A stretch of DNA of 64,000 nt from Poseidonia sp. (GTDB lineage Archaea > Thermoplasmatota > Poseidoniia > Poseidoniales > Poseidoniaceae): positions 11,075-75,074 of the forward strand of contig JBMSEL010000004.1 in NCBI GenBank assembly GCA_049412325.1, in the 5' to 3' direction. The position numbers and the translations under genes are program-made. Under the pieces are notes generated by a model. It was not told the origin of the DNA, ran no database searches, and was given only the letters and a program-made list of their open reading frames with translations. Positions 42,949-58,300 of the stretch are shown here, in pieces. Position 1 is the stretch's first letter; each line of letters starts with the position of its first letter.

Positions 42949-43374
42949 ATGGATGACGACATCATTGAATTTGTAATTGCTCAAGACCGAAAATACTCGA
43001 TGGACCACCTGTGGTTCCAGCAGAAAGACCAGAAGTTGATGATTGGCGTGAGTGAATTCCTCCGCGTTGAAATTGGTGATGTATTGCGTGTGATTTTGCC
43101 GCAGGCAGAGACCGAAATTGACGAAGGCGGCAGCCTGTTCTCTCTATGGACGGCTGATGAAAAAGTCTCGTTGACATCCCCGTTTTCTGGCGTGATTTCC
43201 GATGTGAACGGCGAGGTTGAAATCAACCCTGACCTCGTCAACGATTCCGCCTACAATGACGGCTGGATCATCCTGCTCGAGCCCCATGAATTGCAACTCA
43301 ATCCCGACGACAAGCAGCTCCTTGAGAACCTCATGGAACACGACGAATACGTCGAGTACCTGGCCGAACTTTGA
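42949..43374 (+). CDS. Glycine-cleavage H-protein-like (lipoyl/biotinyl-fold) protein, atypical lysine position
   Basis: 'YSMDHLWFQQ...IGVSEF...GDVLRVILPQ...SPFSGVISDVNGEV..NPDLVNDSAYNDGWI' aligns without gaps to GcvH. The residue at the lipoyl-Lys position is Asp (D70), and Lys lies 2 residues later. Confidence 0.65.
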   Translation: MDDDIIEFVIAQDRKYSMDHLWFQQKDQKLMIGVSEFLRVEIGDVLRVILPQAETEIDEGGSLFSLWTADEKVSLTSPFSGVISDVNGEVEINPDLVNDSAYNDGWIILLEPHELQLNPDDKQLLENLMEHDEYVEYLAEL

Positions 43375-43439
43375 GCCGACGACACCCCGGTTTCATTCTC
43401 CTCCCGAAGGATGATGAACTCAAACCCCCACGGAATTTC

Positions 43440-44018
43440 ATGTCTGACCCTATGGAACAACTCCGTGCCAGCCTCCAAGCTGCACCGGTGATTTGGAAAG
43501 GCGACTACCCATATTTCATCCACCCCATCACCGACGGCGTCCCCCGGATGAATCCCGATGTCTTGACAGCCATCACCGAACTTGTTGTTGACCGCGTCGA
43601 TTGGTCCGGAGTTGACATTTTGCTGGGCATTGAAGCGATGGGTTTGCCCTTGACGGCCCCGCTGAGCATGGCCACTGGCATTCCACTTGTGATCGCTCGT
43701 AAACGCTCCTACGGACTTGAGGACGAGGTGGAGATTGACCAGTCAACGGGTTACTCCAAAGGCGCCATGTACCTCAACGACCTGAAACAGGGCGAACGTG
43801 TGGCCATCCTCGATGACGTGCTCTCAACTGGAGGGACGCTCGAGGCGGTGATCGAAGGTGTTCGCCGTGCTGGAGCGGAAGTGGTTGAAATCATCGCTGT
43901 TGTGGAGAAGGGCGGCGGCTTGCGTCGCCTGCAAGACCTCTACCCGGACCTGCGCATCCAATCCCTCGTTCGCCTCGAGATGGACGGCGACAAAGTGGTG
44001 CTCCTCGACGAAGACTGA
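43440..44018 (+). CDS. hpt: Archaeal-type hypoxanthine/guanine phosphoribosyltransferase
   Basis: 'LRASLQAAPVIWKGDYPYFIHPITDGVP' and the PRPP motif 'VAILDDVLSTGGT'. ATG at 43440; the track start is a TTG at 43371. Confidence 0.8.
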   Translation: MSDPMEQLRASLQAAPVIWKGDYPYFIHPITDGVPRMNPDVLTAITELVVDRVDWSGVDILLGIEAMGLPLTAPLSMATGIPLVIARKRSYGLEDEVEIDQSTGYSKGAMYLNDLKQGERVAILDDVLSTGGTLEAVIEGVRRAGAEVVEIIAVVEKGGGLRRLQDLYPDLRIQSLVRLEMDGDKVVLLDED

Positions 44019-44099
44019 ACATGCCAAGCCTTTGGAGGTGCATCGGTCCAATGGGTGGCTTCATGAGGGAGTGGCACCGCCGTTGAAATGAGGGGAAGC

Positions 44100-45209
44100 A
44101 TGGACCTTGACCGTCACGATTTCGAACTGGACGAGTTGATGGAGCGAATTCGCGCCAACGACAATCGTCTTATTGCGCTTCAAGTGCCCGAAGGCCTCAA
44201 AATGCAGGCGCTCGAGATGATGGACACCATCGAAACCGAAACCAGCGCTCAGGTGGTCCTGGCCGCCGACCCGTGCTACGGTGCGTGTGATCTCGTGCAC
44301 GACAAGATGCAGCTCATGGGCGTGGAACTCGTCGCCCACATGGGACATTCCCAAATGAACATCGATTCAGGTATGCCCACACAATTCATCAACGTCACCT
44401 ACGATGGCGACCCTGAACTCAGCCCTGTTCTTCCCTGGCTTGAACAACACCGAACCATGGCTCAAGCACGCCTTGCTGAGCAAGGGCAAACCTCGGAGTT
44501 GACCGAAGAAGAAGCACAAGAGAAATTCATGGACGCTGTGGGACGCATGGCACCGCTCACCAACACCAAACTCGGCCTGGTGGGTTCCATACAACACCTC
44601 CATCTGTTGCCTGACTTCCACGACCGTTTGGAAAAGGCTGGCTTTGATGTCACCATCCCCATTGGTGGTGCTCGCCTCTCGTTCCCCGGACAGGTGTTGG
44701 GCTGCAATTACTCCGGAGACGACCCTTCCATCGGACACTACCTCTTCCTTGGAAGTGGCGATTTCCACCCCATCGGCCTCGTCCTTCACACCGGCAAACC
44801 ACTGGCCATGCTCGACCCCTACACCGGTGATGCAGAGGAAATGTCGCTTCAGCGGATTGAACGCATCCTGCGTCAGCGCTTCGGCCTGATCATGAGTGTC
44901 CAAGATGCCAATTCCTTTGGCATCCTCATCGGAGAAAAACCAGGTCAAATGCGCCGCACCCTTGCCCTTCGAATGAAGCGCATGCTCGCCAAGCACGGCA
45001 AGAAAGGCTACCTGCTGGCACTGGAGCACGTCGGCCCTGAGCTCATCGACTTCTACCCCGTTGATGCGTTTGTCAACACGGCCTGCCCCCGCATTGCTAT
45101 CGATGATGCCGTCAAGTACCGCAAACCACTCATCACACCGTTTGAACTTGAAGTGGCCCTGGGCGAGAAGCAGTGGGAAACCGGCTACCAGTTTGATGAA
45201 ATCCCCTGA
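44100..45209 (+). CDS. dph2: Diphthamide synthesis radical-SAM enzyme Dph2 (2-(3-amino-3-carboxypropyl)histidine synthase)
   Basis: 'LIALQVPEGLKMQALEMMDTIE..VVLAADPCYGACDL', 'LGCNYS' and 'VNTACPRIAIDD' (three Cys blocks). ATG at 44100 has a GAGGGG SD. Confidence 0.85.
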   Translation: MDLDRHDFELDELMERIRANDNRLIALQVPEGLKMQALEMMDTIETETSAQVVLAADPCYGACDLVHDKMQLMGVELVAHMGHSQMNIDSGMPTQFINVTYDGDPELSPVLPWLEQHRTMAQARLAEQGQTSELTEEEAQEKFMDAVGRMAPLTNTKLGLVGSIQHLHLLPDFHDRLEKAGFDVTIPIGGARLSFPGQVLGCNYSGDDPSIGHYLFLGSGDFHPIGLVLHTGKPLAMLDPYTGDAEEMSLQRIERILRQRFGLIMSVQDANSFGILIGEKPGQMRRTLALRMKRMLAKHGKKGYLLALEHVGPELIDFYPVDAFVNTACPRIAIDDAVKYRKPLITPFELEVALGEKQWETGYQFDEIP

Positions 45210-45264
45210 TTCACTGAACCACAGCGACCTAAAGGCGAACATTGCGGCCGCTGTGAGACCACAT

Positions 45265-45273
45265 GTTTTAGAA
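45265..45273 (+). promoter_or_regulatory. TATA-like element (GTTTTAGAA) about 30 nt upstream of the orc1/cdc6 ATG
   Basis: Its position is consistent with a leaderless transcript. There is no SD before the ATG at 45299. Confidence 0.3.
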
Positions 45274-45298
45274 CGGTTGACATCAGCATTCTCATGAT

Positions 45299-46498
45299 AT
45301 GGTAGACTACCTTGACCGCATCGGCGCTGGGCTCATCATCGCCCATCCAGAGATGCTTGATTTCGACTATGTCCCCGATGAACTGGTGGGTCGAGAAGAG
45401 ATTCAACGTGAATTGGCCTCGAAGTTCTCCAACGTGGCTTCCCCAGAGGGGGCGGCCCGTGCGGTGATCACCGGTCCGGTTGGCAGCGGAAAAACGGTGC
45501 TCGCCAAGACCTTCTGCAGGGACCTGCAACGACACCTCGCCGGCAAGCGTGAACTGAAGGTGGCCCACATCAACTGCCGCAATGCCTCCACCAGCATGAG
45601 GGTGGCACAACGCATCCTCCACCAGTTTGACCCGGGTCATCCCGACCGTGGGCTCTCCCTCGGCGAAATGCTCCTCAGCCTGAGAAAGATGCTACGCCGA
45701 ACCTCAACCCACCTCATGGTGGTGCTCGACGAAGTGGACCACATGCTGCGGCGGTCTGGAGACGAGTTGCTGTACCAACTTCTGCGCATTGATGAAGACC
45801 AAGAAGGAACGGGGACGATCTCCTTGATGCTCATCAGCCAAGAGCAAGTGCTTGATGTCCTCGAGACCGCCGTCATTTCCAAGTTCGGCCAGTCCAATCA
45901 CCTTCGCATCCCACCCTATACCGTGGATGGGCTCGAGGCCATTGCCCTGCAGCGAGCCGAATTGGCGCTGGTGCCGGGAACCTACAACGAGGCCACCGTT
46001 CGCCTGCTCGCAGAGCGAGCTGGACCAAGTGGCGACGCACGCCGTGTGATCGAATACCTGAGCGCAGCGGCTGAGCGATGTGAATTTCGCCAAGACAAGT
46101 ACTCGGAACGCCTTATCAGCATTGAAGACGTTCACGCCATGAGCGACAATGTCGCCTTGGATACCACCGCTCGCTTGGAAGTGGTCGACGACCTCGCACC
46201 CCAGGGCATGTTGGTCCTGCTTGCTATGTGCCGGCGTCTTCGCACGGAAGAATCCATGACCATGGGCGACGTTGAACGGCTCTATGCGGTGGTGTGCGAA
46301 GAATATGAACAGAAGCCAAAAAGCCACACGACGCTTTGGAAATACATCAAACAGATCGAGCAAGACGGCGTCATCGCCACACGGGTGGCCACCGTCCCCG
46401 GTGGACGGGGGCGAACAACGCATCTAAGCATGCCACACTTCCTTCCGGCTGACATCGCCAGCCGCCTTGAATTGCTCTTACCGAAGCGACTTCGCTGA
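45299..46498 (+). CDS. cdc6: Orc1/Cdc6 replication initiator
   Basis: 'LVGREEIQRELA', Walker A 'GPVGSGKTVLAK', Walker B 'VVLDEVDHM' and a C-terminal winged helix 'GRGRTTHLSM'. Confidence 0.9.
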   Translation: MVDYLDRIGAGLIIAHPEMLDFDYVPDELVGREEIQRELASKFSNVASPEGAARAVITGPVGSGKTVLAKTFCRDLQRHLAGKRELKVAHINCRNASTSMRVAQRILHQFDPGHPDRGLSLGEMLLSLRKMLRRTSTHLMVVLDEVDHMLRRSGDELLYQLLRIDEDQEGTGTISLMLISQEQVLDVLETAVISKFGQSNHLRIPPYTVDGLEAIALQRAELALVPGTYNEATVRLLAERAGPSGDARRVIEYLSAAAERCEFRQDKYSERLISIEDVHAMSDNVALDTTARLEVVDDLAPQGMLVLLAMCRRLRTEESMTMGDVERLYAVVCEEYEQKPKSHTTLWKYIKQIEQDGVIATRVATVPGGRGRTTHLSMPHFLPADIASRLELLLPKRLR

Positions 46499-46571
46499 CC
46501 GTGTTGGCCATGCAGCAGACGATGGGGCTAAATACGGGTCTTTTGTCGGACAAATCCCGAGAGGTGCTACC

Positions 46572-47048
46572 ATGGCAGAATTCATCGCAGTCGTCAACGA
46601 CACTGACGCAAAGAACGGCGGCAAGTCCTACGCTCTGAAAATCACCGGCAACAACCACGCACAGATGCTCGGAAAGCGCATCGGCGATGTTGTTGACGGC
46701 CTGTTTGTTGGCGAGGGCGACAAGACGCTCTCCGGCTACAAACTCGAAATCACGGGTGGTTCCGACAAGACCGGGACCCCCATGCGCCGAGACCTCGAAG
46801 GTGGCAACCGCCAATCCATTCTCGTCACCCAGTCGACGGGGTACAAGGGCGAAGTCATCGTCAACAAGAAGAAGAGCGGTGAACAGAGGCGCTTCCGATA
46901 CAAGCCCGATGGCCTGCGCAAGCGACGAAACTTCCGTGGCAACACGGTCACCCAAGACACCCGTCAAATCAACCTCAAAGTGGTTGAAGCTGGCAAAAAG
47001 CCACTCGCCACCATCCTCGCCGCTGAGGGCGAGGAAGCATCGGAGTGA
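46572..47048 (+). CDS. rps6e: 30S ribosomal protein S6e
   Basis: 'GYKLEITGGSDKTGTPMRRDL...ILV...GLRKRRNFRGNTV..DTRQINLKVV'. ATG at 46572 has a GAGGTG SD. Confidence 0.9.
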   Translation: MAEFIAVVNDTDAKNGGKSYALKITGNNHAQMLGKRIGDVVDGLFVGEGDKTLSGYKLEITGGSDKTGTPMRRDLEGGNRQSILVTQSTGYKGEVIVNKKKSGEQRRFRYKPDGLRKRRNFRGNTVTQDTRQINLKVVEAGKKPLATILAAEGEEASE

Positions 47049-47087
47049 ACCCGAGAGGGTAATCGCAGGACATAGGAAGGGGGAAGC

Positions 47088-48326
47088 ATGGCACGAAAGC
47101 TTCCCGCTCAACCTGAGGTCAACATCGGTTTGGTTGGCCATGTCGACCACGGAAAAACCACGCTGACGCAAGCGTTGTCTGGCGTATGGACCGACACCCA
47201 TTCTGAAGAGCGAAAACGCGGCATCTCAATCAAACTCGGCTATGCCGACACGGCGTTCTACAAAGACGATAACGGCCAATATTACGCCACGGGCAAGCGC
47301 CCGGATGGCGGTGATGACGTTGAGGGGGAGTTGCAGCGTGTGGTGTCCTTCGTTGACGCCCCTGGCCACGAGACCCTGATGGCCATCATGATCACCGGTG
47401 CTTCCATCATGGACGGTGCCATGTTGATGGTGGCCGCCAACGAAACCTGCCCCCAGCCTCAAACCCGTGAACATCTCATGGCGCTAGAAATCGCTGGCAT
47501 TGAGAACATCGTCATCGTTCAAAACAAGATCGACCTGGTTTCCAAAGAGCGGGCCATGGAATCACAAGCAGAGATCAAGGCCTTCCTCAAGGGCACCATC
47601 GCAGAAAAGGCACCCATCATTCCCGTCTCGGCCCACCACGATGTGAACCTCGATGTGCTCATCCATGCCATTGAGGCTACCATTCCAACGCCCGATCGCT
47701 CAAAGGACAAGCGCTCGATTATGCATGTTGCTCGTTCCTTTGACATCAATCGTCCCGGCACGCGCCCCACCAAACTCCGAGGCGGCGTCATCGGCGGCAG
47801 CATCGTGGAAGGGGAGTTCTCAGAGGGCGATGAGATCATCATCGGCCCCGGTCGAAAAATCGAGAAAGGCAACAAATCCACCTGGGAACCGATTGAAGCC
47901 GTGGTAAGCAGCATGCAGGGCGGTGGATTGACCCTCGACACGATGCACGCCGGAGGTCTCTGCGGTATGGCCACGTTCCTCGACCCCTCCATCACGACCT
48001 CGGATAACCTTTCAGGCCAAGTTGTCGCTCGTAAAGGCGACCTCCCTGAGGTTCACAACAGCCTATCCATTGAGGTCAACCTGATGCAGCACATGGTGGC
48101 TGGAGACGGCGAATCGCCCGAAAAGATTCACCCGCTTCGCAACAACGAGATGTTGATGCTCAACGTGGCCACCGCCACATCAGTTGGTGTGACCCGAAAC
48201 GCTGAGAAAGGGAGAACAGACCTCGATTTGCGCCTGCCCATTTGTGCTGACAAAGGCCAACGCATCTCTCTTTCACGACGCATCGGCTCTCGTTGGCGCC
48301 TCATCGGCTACGGAACCATCGTGTGA
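47088..48326 (+). CDS. eif2g: Translation initiation factor aIF2 gamma subunit
   Basis: G1 'GHVDHGKTTL', 'DAPGHE', 'NKIDLV' and the zinc-knuckle region. Length and domain II/III pattern are typical. Confidence 0.95.
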   Translation: MARKLPAQPEVNIGLVGHVDHGKTTLTQALSGVWTDTHSEERKRGISIKLGYADTAFYKDDNGQYYATGKRPDGGDDVEGELQRVVSFVDAPGHETLMAIMITGASIMDGAMLMVAANETCPQPQTREHLMALEIAGIENIVIVQNKIDLVSKERAMESQAEIKAFLKGTIAEKAPIIPVSAHHDVNLDVLIHAIEATIPTPDRSKDKRSIMHVARSFDINRPGTRPTKLRGGVIGGSIVEGEFSEGDEIIIGPGRKIEKGNKSTWEPIEAVVSSMQGGGLTLDTMHAGGLCGMATFLDPSITTSDNLSGQVVARKGDLPEVHNSLSIEVNLMQHMVAGDGESPEKIHPLRNNEMLMLNVATATSVGVTRNAEKGRTDLDLRLPICADKGQRISLSRRIGSRWRLIGYGTIV

Positions 48327-48336
48327 GGCGTGAGCC

Positions 48337-48714
48337 ATGCAGCACGTGCTCATCGATGCGTGCGGTTGGGTCGCCTGCATGGAAGCTGGATTGAATGTCG
48401 AGCGCGACCTCGAATCCCTGCTTGGACCTTGCTCATGGGTGCTTCTGCCGCAGGTTGAGAAGGAACTTGAACAACTTGAACGCGGGCGTCCGAAGAAGAA
48501 GTCGTTGTTACTGAGCCTGTTGCGGTCTCGAGCACAACGGTTGCAGGGACAACCAATCGGCCATACCGACGACATCCTCGTGGCGTGCGCCATGGAGAAC
48601 AACTGGGCAACCCTCACCGTTGATACGGCCCTGAAACGCCGCCTGTACGAAGCGAACCTGCCCGTGATCGAAGTGCGACAAAACAGCCATCTTCACCTTG
48701 TCGAATCGCTATAG
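48337..48714 (+). CDS. PIN-domain protein (COG1412/Fcf1-like), conserved partner downstream of aIF2-gamma
   Basis: 'VLIDACGW...' provides the acidic PIN residues and 'TDDILVACA...ATLTVDTALKRRL' follows. The S6e / aIF2-gamma / PIN gene order is widespread in archaea. Confidence 0.7.
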   Translation: MQHVLIDACGWVACMEAGLNVERDLESLLGPCSWVLLPQVEKELEQLERGRPKKKSLLLSLLRSRAQRLQGQPIGHTDDILVACAMENNWATLTVDTALKRRLYEANLPVIEVRQNSHLHLVESL

Positions 48715-48719
48715 AACGA

Positions 48720-49019
48720 TTACGGAAGCGTGAACAAAACGTCGTCACCATGCCCGTCAAGCCAACCGATTTTCACGCCTGCATCGATCCATGCGTGGGC
48801 ATAGTTAATCGCTCCAAAGGCACGGACCAAATCTCCAGTCTTGAGGAAATGCTGAGCGTCAGAAGCGTAGTCGTCAGCCATCCGAAGCATCACCGCCAGG
48901 TGCACCGCTTCATCCGAGGGCGCTTCCACCAAAGGTGTGGCTTTGGCACGTGCCCGCCGTGTGATGTCAAGGTAGGATTCAACGCGCTCAACGGTAAGTG
49001 AAGTCAAATCTCCGCTCAT
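48720..49019 (-). CDS. DUF357-family small archaeal protein
   Basis: 'MADDYASDAQHFLKTGDLVRAFGAINYAHAWIDAGVKIGWLD' fits the DUF357 helical-hairpin signature. ATG at 49019 overlaps the upstream stop (ATGA) and has a GGAGGGTG SD. Confidence 0.55.
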   Translation of the reverse strand: MSGDLTSLTVERVESYLDITRRARAKATPLVEAPSDEAVHLAVMLRMADDYASDAQHFLKTGDLVRAFGAINYAHAWIDAGVKIGWLDGHGDDVLFTLP

Positions 49020-50068
49020 TCCCCACCCTCCTTTTGCCGCTTCAATAAGCGTCGAGCGTCTTCGGTACGCCCAAGGGCTTCGTAAAGTTCGATGGCGAGG
49101 GAAAGTTTTCCGAGGTCTTCGGCTTCTTGGGCTCGTACAAACATCTGACGCCGTTCCTCCCAATTTCGAGCCATGGCAGCTTCTGCGGCTGCTTTGTACC
49201 GGCCTTCACGCTCTGCATCGGCGAGATGAGGAGCCGTCCATCGACGCAGAAGACCTTCACGAGTCGCCGTTACCATAGCGTCCGGGGTGCACAGCACCAA
49301 CAAGTCGCCGAGATTCATGCCCTCCGTCAATGGCTTCTCATCCTCGGCGTCGTTTGGGCCATCGGTCATGGAGATGAGATGGCCTTCAATCCCGAGAACC
49401 CACCAACCATCGCCGCTTCGAACCGCCCCCATGGGCTCAAGGCTGTCGTATTCCAGCCGATTCAACATGTCCCAACCAAAGGGATGGGGAACGCCCTCCC
49501 AAAGACCACCATCACTGCTTTGCAACAACAATCGGCCCTCAGATAGTGTGGAACACCAACTCCATGAGCGATCTTCCAGCTTTCGTTTTCGGTCATCACC
49601 GGTCAACCGTCCACACCACAGATGGCCATCAGGGTCCTGCCAGAGCAGGTGCTCTCGGTCCAACCAACCAACCAACCGGCGAACGGGCCCGCTGTCAACG
49701 CGTCGAATACCACGGCCCTGTTGAGAGAAGAGGTGAATCTCACCACGTCGACCTGCAAGGGCCCAACCGCCGCCGGGCCGTGGTGACAAGTCACTGAATC
49801 CGCCAGGGGCACTTCGCCCCTCGTTTACCATTGAACCGTCGTTGGTGTTGATCAGGTAAAAACCGTGAGCGGCGAGGACTCCCACGGCGCCTTGCGTGGC
49901 TTTGGCCGCGTGAACTTTGAACGGAATGTCGACCGCCCACCGAAGGGTACCATCTGCCTCCAGCAAATCCAGTTGGAGTCCAGCGCTCACCAACACTCCA
50001 CCCTCAACAGCAGCGATCGTAGCCACGCGGTCGTTGGCTTGCCATGACCATGCAATGTTCCATGTCAC
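49016..50068 (-). CDS. Beta-propeller (PQQ/WD-like repeat) protein with C-terminal helical tail
   Basis: Repeated 'DG.LW/ DG..W' blades (EADGTLRW, NDGSMV, DPDGHLWCG, SSDGGLWEG, SGDGWWVLG). The C-terminus is TPR-like and helical. GTG start at 50068 overlaps the upstream stop (GTGA) and follows a perfect GGAGGTGA with a 6-nt spacer. Confidence 0.55.
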   Translation of the reverse strand: MTWNIAWSWQANDRVATIAAVEGGVLVSAGLQLDLLEADGTLRWAVDIPFKVHAAKATQGAVGVLAAHGFYLINTNDGSMVNEGRSAPGGFSDLSPRPGGGWALAGRRGEIHLFSQQGRGIRRVDSGPVRRLVGWLDREHLLWQDPDGHLWCGRLTGDDRKRKLEDRSWSWCSTLSEGRLLLQSSDGGLWEGVPHPFGWDMLNRLEYDSLEPMGAVRSGDGWWVLGIEGHLISMTDGPNDAEDEKPLTEGMNLGDLLVLCTPDAMVTATREGLLRRWTAPHLADAEREGRYKAAAEAAMARNWEERRQMFVRAQEAEDLGKLSLAIELYEALGRTEDARRLLKRQKEGGE

Positions 50069-51948
50069 TGTAATTCACCTCCATTGATGGCGCCCCATGC
50101 CGTTAATTGCGCCCTCGCCGCTTGTGTGAGTGAATACTTGCGTGAGCGCCCTACTTGACGTGCCTGCAAAATACCGTGCTTCAGGAGGCGATTACTGATC
50201 TGGGAGAGGCGAGCGCGTTTGATCTTCAGGTGCGTCAACACTTCCTCGTCCGAGGGTGAGTAAGCACGCTCATGTGCGAGGGCCACGATGTAACTCTCAC
50301 TCGAATTCAAGGAGCCGAGAAGATGCTTGTTGAGGGCATAAGATTCGTTGGGCCCTGTACGTTCACGAATACGGCCTTCAAGAAATGCCAGAAGGCCCTG
50401 ATGGTGCGAGTTGGACATGGATTGACCCGTACCCAAGAGACCGGCGAGCGCTGACAACAGCGCTCTGTCCGTCAATTGTTCAGCCTCAGCAGGCATCGAA
50501 CCCATCGGTTGGTATGCAGCAGCATCGAACCCGTCGGTTGGTTCTCCCTCGTCGACCTCTTCCATCATCCCGATTTCATCGTGGAGCAACATGGCCGATT
50601 CCTCTTCAGGGATCTCTTCTGGTAGCGATGGAGGAAGGATTTCTTCAGCCACCCAATACTCATACTCGCTCGAGGCGTCAATGAGTTCTTGCCGGGGAGG
50701 TTGTTTCTCCTCCTCCTCCATCTCATCTGTTTTCGTGGCCGTTTTGGCGTCTTTGTTGCGGTTGGCCAATCCTTTGAACATCCCGTGTACCGGCGTGCGG
50801 CCGCCCAACGCCTGGTCAGCATCGATGATGGGGGGGTTGAGCGGGTTGGGCTGTAACGGTTCGTCCTCTGCCTGTTGCTCGTTCAGACGATCCATGTCCA
50901 ATTCAAAGCCCGCCAAGGCGGGAGGTTCTGAGGCGCTTGCATCCATGTTGCTCGCGAGGGACGGGCGTTGATCCCACGGCATTGAGGCATCAATCACCTC
51001 GGAGGAGGCCTCTGAAAGGGGTTCTTCCTCTGGAGGTTGCACCGTGGTGTGGCCAGAAGGTTCACCATCAGCCATGGGTGGCTCTTGTGCTCCTGGTTCG
51101 TGGTCGAAGGCGGGGGTCTCTTCATAACCCATCAATCGGTGAAGACGTTCAGGTTCATCTCGAGGTTGAATCCTCGCCGAGGTGTCGAGAAACGGTGCTG
51201 GCACCTCCTCCGATTGACGCATCCGAATGCTGTCCACCGCATCACGAAGGATGGTGATGACCGAAGCAGGGTAGCCATCGCACTTGTCGAGGATGGTCGT
51301 GGCGTCTTGCATGGTGAACGAACTGTCCATGACGCCAACTGAAGCAAGGCGTTGTCGAACCAGCGCCATCACATCGTTGGCAGTGAATGGAGAAAGTCGA
51401 AACGACTCAAAGCCATCCACGACGGCACCCGGTAGCTGGTGACGCTCTTTGATATCACAGACCAAAACAAGCAAGGCGTTGAGTCGCTCGAGCGAGGAAT
51501 GAGCATCCCGCAGGGCAACTTCCAACACCGAGAGGTCGCTCGCTGGAACGTCGATGACGATCATGGGCAATTTGTCGTTGTAGGCGTACATTTCATTGAC
51601 GAGCTCCGTGACAAGTTCGGTTCGGTTGACCGGCGGCTCCCCACCGATCATTTGGCGATAGCACATGCTGAGCAGCGAAGTCGCAGGAGAATGAGCAGGA
51701 AGGTGATCGATGGTTGCCACGGCCGCAGCATAGGTTTTCAGGCAACTGACCAGGGACGTCCGCCCGGAACCCAACGGGCCCAGCAACATCACTCGGCGAG
51801 CAGACCGGAATCGCAAGAAATTCTGAAGGCGGGTGAAGATGTCATCACGGCCGACCAGTTTACCCGACTCGCCAGGTTCGAGAGGGCGAATCGAAAATGG
51901 GTTTTCCTCCAAACAAGGTAAGCCATAAGCATGGGTTTCGCGAACCAT
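50065..51948 (-). CDS. Degenerate AAA+ (Orc/Cdc6- or Arch_ATPase-like) domain, long acidic disordered linker, C-terminal winged-helix protein
   Basis: 'LVGRDDIFTRLQNFL...VMLLGPLGSGRTSLV' is a P-loop with Arg in place of the Walker A Lys. The Walker B-like 'PMIVIDVP' lacks the D-E pair. About 250 aa are Glu/Asp/Pro-rich. The C-terminal 'RARLSQISNRLLKHGILQARQVGRSRKYSLT' is wHTH-like. ATG at 51948 lies about 23 nt downstream of a TATA-like 'GATATACTT'. The alternative start is a GTG at 51999. Confidence 0.6.
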   Translation of the reverse strand: MVRETHAYGLPCLEENPFSIRPLEPGESGKLVGRDDIFTRLQNFLRFRSARRVMLLGPLGSGRTSLVSCLKTYAAAVATIDHLPAHSPATSLLSMCYRQMIGGEPPVNRTELVTELVNEMYAYNDKLPMIVIDVPASDLSVLEVALRDAHSSLERLNALLVLVCDIKERHQLPGAVVDGFESFRLSPFTANDVMALVRQRLASVGVMDSSFTMQDATTILDKCDGYPASVITILRDAVDSIRMRQSEEVPAPFLDTSARIQPRDEPERLHRLMGYEETPAFDHEPGAQEPPMADGEPSGHTTVQPPEEEPLSEASSEVIDASMPWDQRPSLASNMDASASEPPALAGFELDMDRLNEQQAEDEPLQPNPLNPPIIDADQALGGRTPVHGMFKGLANRNKDAKTATKTDEMEEEEKQPPRQELIDASSEYEYWVAEEILPPSLPEEIPEEESAMLLHDEIGMMEEVDEGEPTDGFDAAAYQPMGSMPAEAEQLTDRALLSALAGLLGTGQSMSNSHHQGLLAFLEGRIRERTGPNESYALNKHLLGSLNSSESYIVALAHERAYSPSDEEVLTHLKIKRARLSQISNRLLKHGILQARQVGRSRKYSLTQAARAQLTAWGAINGGELQ

Positions 51949-52007
51949 GGCCGAGCAACTTTCTCCAAGTATATCATGTTTCACCGGAGCAGAGGGCACT
52001 GCGATAC

Positions 52008-52110
52008 CGTTAGCACACGTTAATCGCTTTACCGAGCAGAGGAGATGGGTGTTTTTAACGCGTGATTAACGCAACATTAACGCGTTAACCGAGGCGTTAG
52101 AAGCGTTAAT
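52008..52110. repeat. Array of 8 (A)TTAACGC-type motifs: 3 direct copies at 11-bp phase, central 12-bp palindrome, inverted copies
   Basis: TTAACGC at 52055-61, 52066-72 and 52077-83. GCGTTAA at 52082-88 and 52103-09, and GCGTTAG at 52094-100. Degenerate CGTTAG at 52008-13 and CGTTAA at 52018-23. TTAACGCGTTAA at 52077-88 is a perfect palindrome. Confidence 0.7.
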
Positions 52111-52182
52111 TTCCCGTGTTCGCCAACGACCCTCCAGCGATTGATTGAAGGAACGAAGGCCCCACCCATCAACGGGAGCGAC

Positions 52183-53481
52183 ATGCCGGTTGAAAACAGT
52201 CGAGTCAAAGGATTGTACAAACTCAGCGTTGAAGAGCGCCGTTCCTTGGTTGCTGCGGCGGCCGACCTCTCAGACGCTCATGTCGCCGCCCTGGCCGCCC
52301 ACGGAGAATTGGACGAAACCGCAGCAGACCGAATGATCGAGAACGTCATCGGCACGATGTCGCTCCCAGTGGGCGTGGCCACGAACTTCGTCATCGACGG
52401 CTCGCATTACCTCATCCCGTTTTGCCTTGAAGAATCGAGCGTTGTCGCCGCTGCCTCAAACATGGCCAAGCGCTGCTTGCACCATGGTGGCTTCACGACC
52501 AACAACGACGCTCCCGTCATGATCGGCCAGATTCAACTCTTGGACATTGAAGATCTCGAGCAAGCAATCGCTCACATCACGGACGCCAAAGACGATTTGA
52601 TGACATTTTGCAACGATATCCCTTCCCGAATGATCGCAATGGGCGGAGGCTGCAAGAACATCGAAGTTCGTCGTTTGCCCACCCACGTAGGTGAGATGCT
52701 CATCGTTCATCTGCTGGTGGATTGCCGTGATGCCATGGGGGCCAACGCCGTCAACACCATGGCAGAGCGCGTGGCACCTCGCTTGGAAGCGTTGACGGGT
52801 GGACGGGCTCATCTTCGCATCCTTTCCAACCTTGCTGGACACCGCCTGGCCCGTGTGCAAGCGGTGTTTACGCCTGAAGAAATGGCATCCGATGGAACCC
52901 GAGAGGACGGCTTGGCCGTCATTGAAGGCATCCTTGAAGCCCATGCTTTCGCCGTAGAAGACCCGTTTCGAGCCACCACGCACAACAAAGGCGTGATGAA
53001 CGCCATTAGCAGCGTAGCGCTTGCCTGCGGGCAAGATTGGAGAGCGATTGAAGCTGGCTGTCATGCATGGACGACCATGGCGGACGGACGCTATACATCC
53101 ATGTCAGACTGGGCGCAGGACAGCGAGGGCAATCTGGTTGGAAGCATGGACCTGCCCATGGCCGTCGGCATCGTCGGCGGTGCCTCCAAAGTCCACCCTG
53201 CTGCACAAGCGAACCTTGCCATCTTGGGCGTGGAAACGGCCCAAGAGTTGGCCGGCATCATTCTGTGCGCAGGTTTGGCGCAAAATTTGGGAGCGCTCCG
53301 GGCCCTTTCAACCAAAGGAATCCAAGCGGGCCACATGAAACTCCATGCGAAGAACATGGCCGTCAGTGCTGGAGCGGTGGGTGAAGAGATTGAGATCTTG
53401 GCTGCTCGACTCCAAGCCCATGAAGGCCACCGAACCCAAACCTTGGTCGAATCGTGGCTGAAAGAACTTCGCGGCGAGTGA
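52183..53481 (+). CDS. hmgA: HMG-CoA reductase, class II
   Basis: 'ENVIGTMSLPVGVATNFVIDG..YLIPFCLEESSVVAAASNMAK' shows the class II 'EE(P/S)SVVAA' block, whereas class I has 'TTEGCLVAS'. Also 'DAMGANAVNT' and 'GHMKLHA'. ATG at 52183; the track start is a TTG at 52141. Confidence 0.9.
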   Translation: MPVENSRVKGLYKLSVEERRSLVAAAADLSDAHVAALAAHGELDETAADRMIENVIGTMSLPVGVATNFVIDGSHYLIPFCLEESSVVAAASNMAKRCLHHGGFTTNNDAPVMIGQIQLLDIEDLEQAIAHITDAKDDLMTFCNDIPSRMIAMGGGCKNIEVRRLPTHVGEMLIVHLLVDCRDAMGANAVNTMAERVAPRLEALTGGRAHLRILSNLAGHRLARVQAVFTPEEMASDGTREDGLAVIEGILEAHAFAVEDPFRATTHNKGVMNAISSVALACGQDWRAIEAGCHAWTTMADGRYTSMSDWAQDSEGNLVGSMDLPMAVGIVGGASKVHPAAQANLAILGVETAQELAGIILCAGLAQNLGALRALSTKGIQAGHMKLHAKNMAVSAGAVGEEIEILAARLQAHEGHRTQTLVESWLKELRGE

Positions 53482-53483
53482 AA

Positions 53484-54095
53484 TCATTCTTCTTCGCCAA
53501 CCGGAAGCGACGACTGGACCGTCCCCTCTTCATCGGATTCCTCTCGTAGGATCTCTTTGCTGTCGCCAAGTTCATCCAACAAACCACTCGATTGGACCTG
53601 TTCTCGGAACCACGCCTTGACCTTTTTTCGGTCCGTATGCGGGCACCCAAAGGCTTCGGAAAATCGGCGCGTGGTCGCCAGACGCCGGGTGTTCCCGTCC
53701 TTCCGGCGGTCAATCATGCCGTGTTGGGCGAGTTCTCGAACGTAATCGTAGGCCTTCTGGCCGAGCAGTTCCACCAACCGGGATTGGGGCATGGGCTGGT
53801 GGTAGGCGATAAGAGCGGCCGCTTTGAGCAACTTGGGCGGCATGTCGGTCTTGGTCTCCCGAGGCAAGTGCGAGGCGATGGCGGGCTTGACCTCAAGGGC
53901 CCAGCGGTCGCCAACTTCAGCCAGCTGAAGCGCACCACCCTTACGTCGCTTGAGCGTGGCTTGAAGGGAACCAAGGCAGTCGAGCATCTCGTCCTCATCA
54001 TAACCCAAAACCTTGGACAATTCATCCACGGACATGGATTTCCCTGAACTGAACAGGGTCGCCTCAATCAGGGATTCCAACGGTACTTCTGCCAT
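53484..54095 (-). CDS. scpB: Segregation and condensation protein B
   Basis: 'LIEATLFSSGKSMSVDELSKVLG' and a second wHTH 'ALIAYHQPMPQSRLVELLG'. ATG at 54095 has a GAGGGAG SD. Alternative ATG at 54122. Confidence 0.8.
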   Translation of the reverse strand: MAEVPLESLIEATLFSSGKSMSVDELSKVLGYDEDEMLDCLGSLQATLKRRKGGALQLAEVGDRWALEVKPAIASHLPRETKTDMPPKLLKAAALIAYHQPMPQSRLVELLGQKAYDYVRELAQHGMIDRRKDGNTRRLATTRRFSEAFGCPHTDRKKVKAWFREQVQSSGLLDELGDSKEILREESDEEGTVQSSLPVGEEE

Positions 54096-54102
54096 GTCTC
54101 CC

Positions 54103-55314
54103 TCACTCCACCAACCAATCATGTTCCTCGAAGCCTTCGGCAGACTCCACCTCAACCGCTACCTCCGGCGATTGATGTTCGGCCTCTTTCGCAGCCTTGG
54201 CCTCCAACTTGGCCTGTCGACGGACCTCCCGTTCTTCGGCCAACCTTGCACGCTCAGCGATGGCTTCCATGCGATGTTCCGAGCCAGTGGTTTGACCGTC
54301 GAGCTCAACCGCATCCTCGGCCATCAAGGCCTCAACCGCCTCGAGGACGTCAGTGAAGGATGTCAAATCAGGCCAGAGGTCCTCGATCATGATGTTGGCG
54401 ACCGCCTCACCTTCCTGGGTGATGCTGGCCATCCGTCGATGCGTGAGGAACAAACCAGCGATGAATGAAGCGACGAAGGCCTCGCTTTCTGGATCCCCAA
54501 GCGACGTCCCAAAAGTGGAGACCAGCAGTGGTTTGAGCCTCGCCATGACATCGACCAGAGGGACAACGGAGGAACTGGCCGCTTCACATGTTGCTTTCAG
54601 AGCACGCCAGCAGCGTTCAATGTCACCTTCGAGGTCTTCATTGTGCATGCGCCCCCCAATGTCTTGGAGGTATTCACTCAGTTCTCGCTCGTGCTCAATA
54701 CGATTGATCTCACGCTGTTTGAGTGCCTCTGCATCGTCTGCTGCATCCTTGAAGGCCGACAGCAGTTCGGCAAGCGTCACCGGCCGGCCTTCATCGCGAC
54801 GGACCCGTTCGTCAAACAGATTGGTGAGAAGGTCATCTGCGTCCCCGTCAAGAACGGATTGGGTGAAAAAGAAAGCTTCGTCGTCGTATTCGCTCTCCCA
54901 TCCAAAGCCGTGGTCATCGTCCCACACCTCTTCCTCAACAGGCTGAATTTTCTCGAAGAGAACGGCAGATTGGTGGTGCAGCACCTCCCATGAGAGGCGA
55001 ATGAGGCGCCCGCATGCAGGCAAGTCGAGATTTTCACCGTCCTTGACACGCTGAGCGAACACCGAAAGGAAGGCCGAAAGGTCGACATCCCACGGATTGA
55101 AGGCTTCTTCGCGTACCAGAGAGAGGACCAAGGCAACCGAACGGTCAAACGGATCATGGAGACTTTGGTGCTCGGCTTCTTCGGTCGCAGCGATGGAGGC
55201 GATTCGTTGTCCGAACTGCTCAGCATCCTCTCGGTCTTCGCCTTGACCGAGAAGCTGGTCAATGACTTCCTGTTGGAGGAACCACCGGTCCAGCATGCTC
55301 TGTTCTTCTGCCAC
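54103..55314 (-). CDS. scpA: Segregation and condensation protein A (kleisin), extended form
   Basis: 'FNPWDVDLSAFLSVF' is the N-terminal ScpA motif and 'RPVTLAELLSAF' also fits. It lies between smc and scpB. GTG at 55314 is preceded by GAGGTGG. At 403 aa it exceeds the usual length of about 250. Confidence 0.75.
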   Translation of the reverse strand: MAEEQSMLDRWFLQQEVIDQLLGQGEDREDAEQFGQRIASIAATEEAEHQSLHDPFDRSVALVLSLVREEAFNPWDVDLSAFLSVFAQRVKDGENLDLPACGRLIRLSWEVLHHQSAVLFEKIQPVEEEVWDDDHGFGWESEYDDEAFFFTQSVLDGDADDLLTNLFDERVRRDEGRPVTLAELLSAFKDAADDAEALKQREINRIEHERELSEYLQDIGGRMHNEDLEGDIERCWRALKATCEAASSSVVPLVDVMARLKPLLVSTFGTSLGDPESEAFVASFIAGLFLTHRRMASITQEGEAVANIMIEDLWPDLTSFTDVLEAVEALMAEDAVELDGQTTGSEHRMEAIAERARLAEEREVRRQAKLEAKAAKEAEHQSPEVAVEVESAEGFEEHDWLVE

Positions 55315-55323
55315 GTTTCCACC

Positions 55324-58300
55324 TCACTGTTCTTCTGATTCCACCAGGGGGTCGCTCTCAGTCAGTTCCTCTGAGGCGTCGCTTTGTTCGGCTTCAGCCA
55401 CCTGCGTGGCGATTTCTGCCCGCTCGTTGATGTCCTCAGTCATCTCACTCGTGCGTTCCATCAAACCACCGAGCGATGCCTCGGCGGTGGGGGAAGCCTC
55501 AGCCTCATCGTGCATGTGATTCAACAAACCGCCAAGACTGCGCGGGACAGTGAGGGGGTCGGGAACTTCGGGCATGTCTTGGGCGGCAGCCACGGCGTCC
55601 ATGATGCGACTCTCGTTTTTGTCGGCGTCTTTCTGGGCTTCTTTGAGAGCAGCCTCGCCCAGCGCGATGGCGCGTTCACGGTCAAAGTCAAGGATACGTC
55701 GACTGCAACCGTCCCCGCCATGCGTAATGCCGATGTGGTGGTCGGCCAGCTTGAGCGAGACTTTGCGAAGGGTGACCATGATGAATTGGGCTCGCTTGCT
55801 GCGTTCTCGGCACATCTTGGCAATCCGTTCTGCATTGTAAGCGTCGAGGTTTTGGTCAACTTCGTCAAAGTAGTAAAACGGACTTGGATCGTAATCTTGG
55901 ATGGCAAAAATGAGCGCCAGAGCTGCCATTGATTGCTCTCCACCAGAGAGTTGCTGACGGCTGACCTTGGATGATTTCCCACGCGGTTGAGCCCAGAGTT
56001 CCAAGCCGCCCTTGAACGGCTCTTCGGGGTTCTCAAGGAACAGTTCACCCCGCCCGCCATCCGAGAGTTGGTGGTAAGAGACTTTGAAATTCTCGTTGAC
56101 CTTTTCCAGCACGGCGACCAAACGTTCCTTGCGCTGGGTTTCCAATTGTTCAGTGACCTCAATCAAATGCTTGCGACGCGCCTGGAGAGTGGCGAATTCG
56201 TCCTTCATCAGGTCAAGGCGTGCCTGGCACTCATCGTATTGTTCGATGGCCATCATGTTGACGTTACCGAAGCCTTCCATGCGACGTTGCAGATTGCGGA
56301 GATCTCGCTCCAATTCACCAACATTCTTCAGCCCATCTGGCAGATCGTTGAGGGAAAGATTGGCATCGATGAGTTCCTGAGCCATGAGTTGAACTTCGGC
56401 TTCTTTGTCACTGATGGTTCGCAACAATTCTTCTGCGAGGCGACGATGATTTTGTGCTTGAATGAGGCGTTCTTCGTTTCGAACCCGGAGGGTGGCCCGT
56501 TGGTCGGTGAGCTCCTGCCGCTCTTGCTCCAGACCTTGGTTTTCTTCGAGATAGACGGCCTGTTCGTCTTTTTTGGCCTTGAGAGCGATTCGATCGGTCG
56601 CCAGCGTGGCTTCCAGTTCATCGATTCGAACAAGACGTGTTTCCTTGTTCTCGTTGAGGGAGTTAAGCCGCCCCTGAGTTTCGTCCACCCTTCGCTGAAG
56701 TAGCGCTTGATGACTGGTGCCGCTGCTGAGGACTTCCTCAGCCTTGTCCTTCGCCCCGTTGGCCGTCACGCGCAACAAGTCAACGGCATGCATGCGCTCC
56801 CGAAGATGTTCGGGACTGGCAGCCTCAACGGCCTCTTTGGCCATTTCATACGCTTCCTTTGAACTCGCGAGAATTCGGTCAGCCGCATCAAGGCCACGAA
56901 GGGCTTCTTGGGCACTTTGCCGCAACTCGTCCAATTTCAATTCAAGGCCAGCGACAACCCCTTGCGCCTTTTTGTGCGCTTGGCCAACTTGCTTTTGCTC
57001 AGCCTTGACCTCTCGCACTTCAGTGGCGTATGAATCGTCGACCATGGCGTTGATCTTATTTCGGATGCTTTGTTGGTTCGTTCGAGCTTCCCTGAGGGCT
57101 TCGTTGACGGTTTGTTCCATCAGATGGAATTTCTCGACCTCGGCCGTGTGCTTCTCCACCTCAGAGGCGCCCTGGATGCGACCGCCGAAGGCGATGTTCA
57201 TTTTTCGCTTGGAGCCACCGACCATGGCACCGCCCGATTCAATGACGTCGCCTCGGAGCGTGACGAAGCGAGTCCCGCCCATGTACTGGCGAGCGACGCT
57301 GAGGTTCTCCACAATCAGCGTGTTTCGCAGTGCAAAGCGAACAGCTACGTCGATGCGAGGGTCGTAATCCAACATCTCGTGAGCAAAGCCGAGCACGCCT
57401 TCTTTCCGGGCGGTCATGACGGTTTTTCCACCTGCTCGAGAACTGCTCAATTTGTTGAGGGGGAGGAACGTGGCACGACCGGCACGATTCTCAGCCAACC
57501 AACGGATGGCATTGGCTGCATCTTGGTCCGTTTCGACGACGACGGAAGCCATACCTGCGCCGATGGCGGTAGCGAGGGCAATTTCGTGAGCACTGTCTTT
57601 AGGAGCACACAGTTCGGCCACGGTTCCAATGATGCCCTTCAACGCTTGACTGTCTCGTGCCCCCAGAACTGCGCTGGCACCGCCTGCCAACCCCTTGGCA
57701 CCGGATTTCTGTTCCATCTCTGCCTTGGCGAGGCTCAAGGCCCGCTCGGCTTCGCGCAACCGAACTTCGATCCTCGTACGGTCCTCGGAGAGTTGAGCCT
57801 CCGCTCGTTGAGCCTCGGTCAATTGGAGAGCGAGGGCTGCACGGTCGTATTCCGGTGCATCTTCAGCCAATTCTTGCAGCCTGATGTCAAGTTCGCCAAG
57901 GGCTAAGCGAATCTCCTCAGACTCCTGCTGGGCATCGGCGAGTTGCTGGCCGACAAGGTCTGCTTCGACGGCCAGTTTATCCACCTCGGATTGGGCCTCG
58001 GCCCGTTGGGCTTCATGCCCGGCAACCTGTGTTTCTGCTGCCCCCAAGGCTTCGCTGAGATGCTGGTTCTTCTCGCCAGCCGTGGCCAGTGCATCTCGCA
58101 CCTGCTGCTCCTCGGCTTGAGCCTGCTCAAGTTGTTGAAGCGCTTCTGCAAGGGCGGCATTCGCGGAGACAAGGCTCGCTTTGAACGTCGAGAGTTCCTC
58201 GTTCGCTTCCTGTAATTGCTCACCAAGGGCAGCGATTTCCAGTGCTTCATCTTCTTCTTCTTTGGCCGCTTCAGTGAGGCGGTCGTTGTTGAGTTCAATG

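Follow-up and report, generated by a model that had tools for sequence, protein, structure and literature searches.

What does an archaeal protein do when its gene lies behind a phased array of short DNA boxes and is translated together with DUF357, an uncharacterised, near-universal archaeal protein? The question is raised by g1, g2 and g3, three consecutive minus-strand open reading frames (ORFs; 48720-51999) in a stretch of 64,000 nucleotides (nt) of Poseidonia sp. (contig JBMSEL010000004.1, positions 11,075 to 75,074 of the forward strand), which we refer to as the window. A first-pass annotation, made from the letters of the window, described an uncharacterised operon: an Orc/Cdc6-like ATPase with an acidic stretch and a winged helix, a beta-propeller protein and a DUF357 protein. 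The answer that we favour, tentatively and at somewhat less than an even chance, is that g1 is a DNA-binding regulator of its own promoter, one that oligomerises and does not hydrolyse nucleotide. The three genes are:

50065 to 51948, minus strand: g1, 627 amino acids (aa), a nucleoside triphosphatase (NTPase) module, a disordered linker and a winged helix (ORF, homologue starts, AlphaFold2 model)
49016 to 50068, minus strand: g2, 350 aa (ORF, AlphaFold2, Foldseek)
48720 to 49019, minus strand: g3, a 99-aa DUF357 protein, arCOG01224 (Pfam PF04010)

The most informative part of the locus is the repeat array that had been noticed beside these genes, which is a deeply conserved array of TTAACGC boxes in the region upstream of g1. 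The elements between g1 and the divergent HMG-CoA reductase gene that concern g1 are as follows:

52017 to 52109, no strand assigned: TTAACGC box array upstream of g1 (five exact boxes, 11-nt spacing, cross-locus conservation)
52055, 52066 and 52077 (plus strand), 52082 and 52103 (minus strand): exact TTAACGC boxes
52017 and 52094: TTAACGC boxes with one mismatch
52077 to 52088, within the array: perfect palindrome TTAACGCGTTAA, a candidate operator
51968 to 51981, minus strand: TATA-like element AAACATGATATACT, conserved, about 24 nt upstream of ATG 51948

Five of the six exact TTAACGC boxes of the window sit in this spacer, no second cluster exists within the 64 kb, and Tandem Repeats Finder, applied to the whole window, reported the box array alone. 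Across 59 loci, the 260 nt upstream of g1 hold 206 exact boxes (13.9 per kb), compared to 16 in the remaining 695 kb (0.023 per kb), an enrichment of about 600-fold. In Poseidoniaceae-type loci, the boxes keep nearly constant offsets from the g1 start (-161, -140, -135, -124 and -113), with a weaker pair near -75 and -61, and the array also occurs in lineages that lack g2 and in genomes of 36% and 70% GC. A rearrangement in locus L140 is important here, since a peroxiredoxin gene lies there between the reductase gene and g1: the boxes are found upstream of g1, and the spacer between the reductase and peroxiredoxin genes contains none, even at one mismatch. Furthermore, the distance from the array to g1 is less variable over 115 loci (standard deviation 29 nt) than the distance from the array to the reductase gene (72 nt). 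The box array thus belongs to the g1 upstream region, and it is probably, as we predict from its conservation and position, the binding site of g1. A search of Rfam over 47500-53500 gave no match at E ≤ 1; therefore, the g1-reductase spacer is not a known RNA. It should be noted that in L003 (~5700-5910) and L052 (~5900-6000) the sequence upstream of g1, in which other loci carry boxes, is masked by runs of N, just that region having been inspected.

The 5' end of g1 had to be moved. The mechanical ORF, taken over in the first-pass annotation, extends to GTG 51999; ATG 51948, which gives the protein of 627 aa, is probably the true start, because most homologues begin there (MVRET) and the TATA-like element lies about 24 nt upstream. 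AAACATGATATACT recurs at this distance in Poseidoniaceae-type loci as well as in L043, L049 and L058, and is probably the g1 promoter; its distance from the ATG suggests that the predicted g1 mRNA is leaderless or nearly so. The N-terminal extension KHDILG of some gene calls coincides with a TATA-like DNA element, AAACATSATATACT (window 51949-51999), so that its conservation is probably at the DNA level and such extended starts are probably mis-called.

The candidate reader of the boxes is the C-terminal domain of g1, a protein that divides into three regions:

51208 to 51948, minus strand: residues 1-247, N-terminal NPFSIRPLE motif and a divergent AAA_16/STAND-like NTPase module with lid (Pfam, Foldseek, hhalign)
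50407 to 51207, minus strand: residues 248-514, acidic Pro-rich disordered linker with short motifs (composition; predicted local distance difference test score, pLDDT, below 50 over most of it)
50068 to 50406, minus strand: residues 515-627, ArsR/SmtB-type winged helix-turn-helix, recognition region IKRARLSQISNRLLKHGIL (profile, pLDDT)

The AlphaFold2 model of g1, built on 21 homologues, contains two folded modules, residues ~30-247 and 515-620, with pLDDT of ~76-89 (77-89 in the winged helix). A profile of 22 family C-termini matches BigR (7.6e-6), HlyU (1e-5) and ArsR-family structures (6e-5) across the helix-turn-helix and the wing, the window sequence alone being marginal, and the comparison of this profile to the Cdc6 winged helix (2qby) is not significant (E = 0.43). 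The winged helix is also the most conserved region of g1 across the family. As in the ArsR/SmtB proteins BigR and HlyU, which its C-terminal 100 residues match at E ~1e-5 over recognition helix and wing, a palindromic target is plausible for g1; unlike ArsR/SmtB proteins, which are small stand-alone dimers and often sensors of metals or thiols, g1 carries its winged helix at the C-terminus of a 627-aa multidomain protein. Given a palindrome with phased half-sites that adjoins the gene and is co-conserved with the recognition helix, the simplest reading would be that the g1 winged helix recognises the boxes. A g1 dimer would then sit on the palindrome TTAACGCGTTAA and further protomers on the flanking boxes, one helical turn apart, upstream of the g1 promoter.

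What the N-terminal module may contribute was analysed through its motifs, counted over 293 full-length family members. In the window, the P-loop GPLGSGRTS is encoded at 51780-51754 (Arg63 codon 51762-51760), and the Walker B motif IVIDVP has Asp133 (codon 51552-51550) followed by Val. The two substitutions that had first attracted attention, Arg for the Walker A Lys and a Walker B without its acidic pair, are therefore real in the window, and they hold across the family. The basic residue of Walker A is Arg in 283 members and Lys in 10, so that the Lys-to-Arg change is not an artefact; the Lys-bearing members are scattered across several subclades and occur both with g2 in the locus (P0484) and without it (P0388). 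An acidic residue after the Walker B Asp is found in 0 of the 293, and the family motif comparison yielded no conserved arginine finger. No variation was seen in the P-loop glycines, in the Ser that follows the basic residue or in the Walker B Asp. Because the module has lost the catalytic Glu, mostly also the canonical Lys, and any conserved arginine finger, with the phosphate-binding loop and the Walker B Asp kept, we propose that it would bind nucleotide without hydrolysing it and act as an oligomerisation or switch module, not as a motor.

Profile search identified the nearest relatives outside the family, namely compact archaeal AAA_16/ATPase_2/KAP-like proteins with a winged helix (P0374, P0378 and P0382; ~400 aa). 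They share with g1 the N-terminal NPF motif, the order of modules and the RPRxSQI recognition-helix signature; unlike g1, they combine a canonical GK(S/T) P-loop with an hhhhDD Walker B and lack the disordered linker. From this comparison we infer that the Poseidoniales g1 family would descend from an active NTPase-winged-helix protein, having kept phosphate binding and given up hydrolysis. In the one locus with DNA, the compact relative lies beside a HerA-like ATPase in a toxin-antitoxin-rich island, not beside DUF357. The records concerned are L060 (5538-9072) and L061, with a 397-aa relative (GKS, DD, no linker, NPF start, RPRxSQI helix) followed by a 779-aa HerA/DUF87-like ATPase; the island around the pair carries PIN, MazE and TrmB genes, and the pair may be a mobile or defence-type two-gene module.

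The window contains a canonical Orc1/Cdc6 gene (45299-46498; AAA_22, Cdc6_lid and Cdc6_C, with matches to both Cdc6 domains) about 3.6 kb from the operon, just as had been noted, and the earlier view of g1 as a second initiator-like protein with an Orc/Cdc6-like N-terminus has to be judged against it. At the level of generic AAA+ likeness this view stands. In hhalign, the family N-terminal profile aligns to the window Orc1/Cdc6 with a probability of 86% (E = 5e-6, 20% identity, 224 columns), and by this measure the homology of the two goes no further than that of AAA+ modules, because Foldseek places ORC/Cdc6 beside NB-ARC (Sr35, the top match), RFC, RuvBL, Hda, MuB and TnsC, all at ~1e-7. The specific part of the claim is not supported, because g1 is AAA_16/nSTAND-like by Pfam and its winged helix is not of the Cdc6 type. 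AAA_16 (PF13191) matches 18 of 18 diverse members at E ≤ 0.01 (best 5.7e-9), the window g1 itself scoring 25.4-28.2 bits, below the cut-off of 32.6; weak matches to nSTAND1 and AAA_22 were found in 12 and 11 of the 18, respectively. The N-terminal profile gave just P-loop-centred matches in the PDB (midasin, RuvB, Clp) and no specific family, and single-sequence searches of the PDB and NCBIfam gave marginal RFC and ArsR matches and nothing more.

Thus, g1 resembles archaeal Orc1/Cdc6 in a full-length alignable AAA+ module, a C-terminal winged helix, DNA boxes beside the gene and a position near the canonical orc1/cdc6. It differs in that the Cdc6 lid (PF22703) and Cdc6_C (PF09079) have no Pfam match in it, in the ArsR/SmtB-like winged helix and in the long disordered insert. 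The canonical GK(T/S) of Walker A and the acidic pair of Walker B are replaced (GPLGSGRTS, IVIDVP), and the sensor-2 Arg is lost in Poseidoniaceae; the boxes are 7-nt TTAACGC units, unlike origin recognition box (ORB) elements. One could still suppose that g1, together with the boxes, makes up a chromosome element resembling an initiator or a centromere, in which an Orc-related, non-hydrolysing protein nucleates on iteron-like boxes for replication control or chromosome organisation. We consider this quite improbable. The full-length homology to the window Orc1/Cdc6 and to ORC/Cdc6 structures speaks for it, as does the set of phased direct and inverted boxes beside the gene, which resembles initiator-iteron layouts. 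Moreover, wherever a locus extends far enough, Orc1/Cdc6 is 3.6 kb distant, nearly all of these loci have SMC-ScpAB within a few kb, and no other repeat array was found near orc1, a search around it (window positions 40 to 60 kb) having yielded no ORB-like repeats. Conversely, the winged helix is ArsR-type, the ~234-nt spacer must hold two promoters and has no AT-rich unwinding stretch, the sign of the GC skew does not change across the spacer, SMC-ScpAB is not adjacent in L054, and the closest non-degenerate relatives adjoin the HerA-like ATPase in variable islands, not origins.

The nSTAND1 and NB-ARC matches raise another alternative, that g1 and g2 are a split STAND-type immune sensor, with an NTPase and a repeat-domain sensor in the manner of Avs proteins. 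Weak nSTAND1 matches in 12 of 18 members, a resistosome NB-ARC as the top fold match and a propeller/TPR protein next door are consistent with it. It is very improbable nonetheless: the operon has a fixed housekeeping position in all ~130 loci, apparently by vertical inheritance, which is not how defence islands behave; an effector domain is lacking, and the ATPase motifs have degenerated. In comparison to STAND proteins, the repeat domain is a separate protein, g2, which is missing in one sublineage. A known defence system was rejected because PADLOC matches none of g1, g2 and g3.

The stretch of about 250 Glu/Asp/Pro-rich residues that had been described ahead of the winged helix proved to be a linker of 267 residues (22.5% Asp plus Glu, 11.6% Pro, net charge -45). 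It contains short motifs, namely VIDASxPW, DEPLQPxPFNxPIIDA, GxFxGLxxRxR, a Trp motif (EYWV) and EEESAxLIHDEVG. GxFxGLxxRxR and the Trp motif are kept in relatives at 23-38% mutual identity, and the other three hold within the closer set of homologues. None of the candidate linker motifs compared for this tracks g2: IDAS, F-[DE]-L-[DN], GxFxGLxxRxR and the Trp motif also occur in lineages without g2, and because of this no g2-docking motif was assigned. In the mechanism that we propose, motifs of the linker would dock partners or mask the DNA-binding domain. The linker coding region also contains a 21-nt direct repeat, GCATCGAACCCATCGGTTGGT (95% identical), in two copies 29 nt apart (window 50493-50542) that are translated in different frames.

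Which proteins might be docked is suggested by the layout of the operon. The 4-nt overlaps that had been pointed out were found in the sequence, as were the Shine-Dalgarno motifs embedded in each preceding gene. The g1 stop TGA (50067-50065) shares bases with the g2 start GTG (50068-50066) in the GTGA at 50065-50068, and the g2 stop TGA (49018-49016) shares bases with the g3 start ATG (49019-49017) in the ATGA at 49016-49019. The two motifs, which are GGAGG-type ribosome-binding sites 4-7 nt ahead of the g2 and g3 starts, are:

50074 to 50081, minus strand: Shine-Dalgarno sequence of g2, GGAGGTGA, inside the 3' end of g1 and followed by the GTGA overlap
49024 to 49031, minus strand: Shine-Dalgarno sequence of g3, GGAGGGTG, inside the 3' end of g2 and followed by the ATGA overlap

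Of 128 related loci, 53 have a 4-nt overlap at the g1/g2 junction and 70 a 1-nt overlap, and 127 have a Shine-Dalgarno-like motif ahead of g2. At the g2/g3 junction, the 4-nt overlap is present in 66 of 118 loci and the motif ahead of g3 in 95 of 118. This coupled arrangement exceeds chance, because tight junctions and Shine-Dalgarno motifs recur across the 128 related loci. Metatranscriptome contigs, assembled at low depth, cover g1, g2 and g3 and cross both junctions. The C-terminal peptide RQKEGGE of g2 shares bases (window 49016-49035) with the Shine-Dalgarno sequence and start codon of g3, and its conservation in g2 probably reflects, in part, the translation signal of g3.

The third protein was correctly recognised as DUF357: g3 matches PF04010 at E = 2.8e-18 (66.1 bits, compared to a cut-off of 29.4), and it matches 2OO2 at 7.6e-8 and 2PMR at 3e-4 in the PDB. 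The family is found in 463 of 524 archaeal genomes, has no known function, and its orthologous group arCOG01224 was ranked among the top-priority uncharacterised archaeal proteins (PMC6393860); DUF357 is also one of 76 archaeal single-copy marker genes (PMC12680538). Elsewhere in archaea, it is linked to DUF555 and to a TagD-like cytidylyltransferase (PMC6393860). Hence g3 is a clear member of DUF357/arCOG01224, and Poseidoniales differ in its translational coupling to g1 and g2. Since DUF357 is near-universal in archaea, its membership in the operon need not mean a dedicated complex.

This leads to an alternative that we regard as unlikely, in which g1 is a scaffold or adaptor in housekeeping centred on DUF357 (e.g., with the adjacent translation/ribosome genes), another factor binds the array, and the winged helix binds other DNA, RNA or protein. 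Near-universal DUF357 and g1 form an invariant pair (PMC6393860 for the distribution of DUF357), the PIN_9, aIF2-gamma and S6e genes are neighbours of the operon in all loci, a long linker with conserved short motifs is a hallmark of hub proteins, and the boxes are rather distant from the g1 start, all of which would fit such a role. However, the g1 winged helix has the standard ArsR/SmtB recognition-helix signature, a phased palindromic array beside a winged-helix gene is the classic pattern of autoregulation, and the array follows g1 in L140; as to the ribosome, its tie to g1 is one of neighbourhood alone, in a region that is collinear throughout.

The second protein of the operon, g2, is composed of two parts in its AlphaFold2 model:

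49235 to 50068, minus strand: g2 residues 1-278, beta-propeller
49028 to 49231, minus strand: g2 residues 280-347, four-helix TPR-like tail

The model (mean pLDDT 88, predicted template modelling score 0.76) has 25 strands in four-stranded sheets and 4 helices, supporting the propeller that had been predicted, with six or seven blades, and Foldseek matches it to BamB and WD40 propellers at 3e-13 to 3e-10. No match in Pfam or NCBIfam was found at E ≤ 1, so there are no sequence repeats recognisable at the family level. Homologues of g2 turned up just in Poseidoniales-type contigs.

The distribution of the operon was studied in genomes and metagenomes; the Poseidoniales-wide scope of the results rests on record names, on one named cluster member and on the shared neighbourhood. 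A genome scan gave 53 loci, all in Poseidoniales-type metagenome-assembled genomes and all collinear, with the order SMC-ScpA-ScpB, HMG-CoA reductase (opposite strand), g1-g2-g3 and PIN_9-aIF2gamma-S6e-Orc1/Cdc6-Dph2 (opposite strand). A metagenome scan with an alignment of 6 sequences added 77 further loci, which, together with the contexts of distant relatives, have the same arrangement at GC contents of 0.36-0.70. The genes are therefore syntenic in ~130 loci. The g1 family is narrow, since a profile search of 1.84 billion representative proteins gave just 187 matches at E ≤ 0.001; its full-length relatives (23-38% mutual identity) keep NPFxxRP(L/I)E, the P-loop, GxFxGLxxRxR, the Trp motif and the winged helix. 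Database names for its members are "hypothetical protein", "ATP-binding protein" and, once, "transcriptional regulator" (an automated third-party annotation record). The idea of a conserved triad holds for a part of it: in L054- and L056-type lineages, DUF357 follows directly after g1 and there is no propeller gene, and therefore the conserved core is g1-DUF357, not the triad. In L059 (1-8287), the Orc1-S6e-aIF2gamma-PIN block is inverted, which makes orc1/cdc6 the next gene after DUF357, in the same orientation; the contig has just 8 nt ahead of g1 and stops short of the position of the box array.

Taken together, the operon would encode an order-specific DNA-binding regulator or scaffold with co-translated partners, of which DUF357 (always present) and the propeller protein (in most lineages), made from the same mRNA by translational coupling, would be the likeliest to interact with g1. 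Such a regulator would govern its own operon and, possibly, the divergent HMG-CoA reductase gene. Several points weigh against this reading. The link between g1 and the boxes consists of adjacency and co-conservation, with a single discriminating rearrangement (L140), and the boxes, at 113-161 nt ahead of the presumed start, are more distant than classical archaeal repressor and activator sites, the weaker pair being at about -75 and -61. Synteny alone says little, because the whole neighbourhood is collinear across the order. The motif comparison offers no partner-specific linker motif that can be linked to the presence or absence of g2; DUF357, universal and linked elsewhere to DUF555 and the cytidylyltransferase, may merely share a transcript with g1; and the RNA support comes from low-depth assembled contigs, which can contain DNA. 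A bolder version is that g1, DUF357 and, in most lineages, the propeller protein constitute a split STAND-like sensor-regulator, whose nucleotide-locked NTPase nucleates on the array and controls both the HMG-CoA reductase gene and the operon; we think this improbable.

Among described systems, the closest in logic to a g1 regulator of this kind are the MalT/LAL-type activators of bacteria, STAND NTPases joined to a helix-turn-helix. In both cases, an AAA_16/STAND-like nucleotide-binding module is joined to a helix-turn-helix, the targets (presumed ones for g1) are arrays of short asymmetric direct and inverted boxes upstream of a promoter, and there is a repeat-domain (TPR/WD40-like) component. 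Unlike in MalT/LAL proteins, the helix-turn-helix of g1 is an ArsR-type winged helix and not of the LuxR type, the repeat domain is a separate polypeptide, g2, dispensable in one sublineage, and g1 has a 267-residue acidic linker, Arg in Walker A in 97% of members and no catalytic acidic residue. The likeness is best taken as a functional analogy, without membership at the sequence level. What is already known in kind is, then, the domain logic of NTPase, helix-turn-helix and repeat-domain partner; the degenerate motifs, the long acidic linker, the split architecture coupled to DUF357 and the conserved operator-like array are new. Pfam, NCBIfam and PADLOC hold nothing specific for the function of g1, no well-characterised family claims it in profile searches, and in the searchable literature neither the g1 family nor the TTAACGC box sequence was found described, nor was DUF357 found linked to such proteins, in agreement with the initial statement that no function had been described for the trio.

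Some further observations concern the neighbourhood. The housekeeping block at 43371-59238 of the window (phosphoribosyltransferase, Dph2, Orc1/Cdc6, S6e, aIF2gamma, PIN_9, the three genes, HMG-CoA reductase and ScpB-ScpA-SMC) is collinear in nearly all ~130 loci, and g1 is by far its fastest-evolving gene, with 79% identity compared to 90-99% in its neighbours. The mechanical ORF of the HMG-CoA reductase starts at TTG 52141; the conserved start of the protein is more likely ATG 52183 (MPVENSRV...), because in L022 the codons upstream of it are interrupted by a stop in the same frame. Directly ahead of the reductase start lies a conserved non-coding element, GCGATTGATTGAAGGAACG (52135-52153), which reads GCGATTGRTTCAAGGAACG in most related loci; it may belong to the promoter or the 5' untranslated region of the reductase gene. 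Several lineages outside Poseidoniaceae have an extra small gene (134-150 aa) beside PIN that has no counterpart in the window; it lies between DUF357 and PIN in L055 (10730-11143; weak MarR match), L057 (3253-3657) and L058 (5285-5737), and beyond PIN in L059 (7031-7438).

The gene regulation of Poseidoniales (Marine Group II), which rank with the most abundant archaea of the surface ocean, is almost unexplored because they are uncultured. The locus described here pairs a probable DNA-binding protein with a probable operator, both of them order-wide, and the pair can be tested in vitro from sequence alone. The constant coupling to g1 gives DUF357 a candidate partner. The g1 family itself represents an AAA+/STAND module turned into a probable non-hydrolysing switch, in which the toggling between Arg and Lys informs on the role that remains for the P-loop. 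If the link to the HMG-CoA reductase gene is true, the locus would be a rare case of transcriptional control of archaeal lipid synthesis, and a split sensor-regulator, if that is what the three proteins form, would tie DUF357 to the control of isoprenoid membrane lipids in the most abundant planktonic Euryarchaeota of the ocean.

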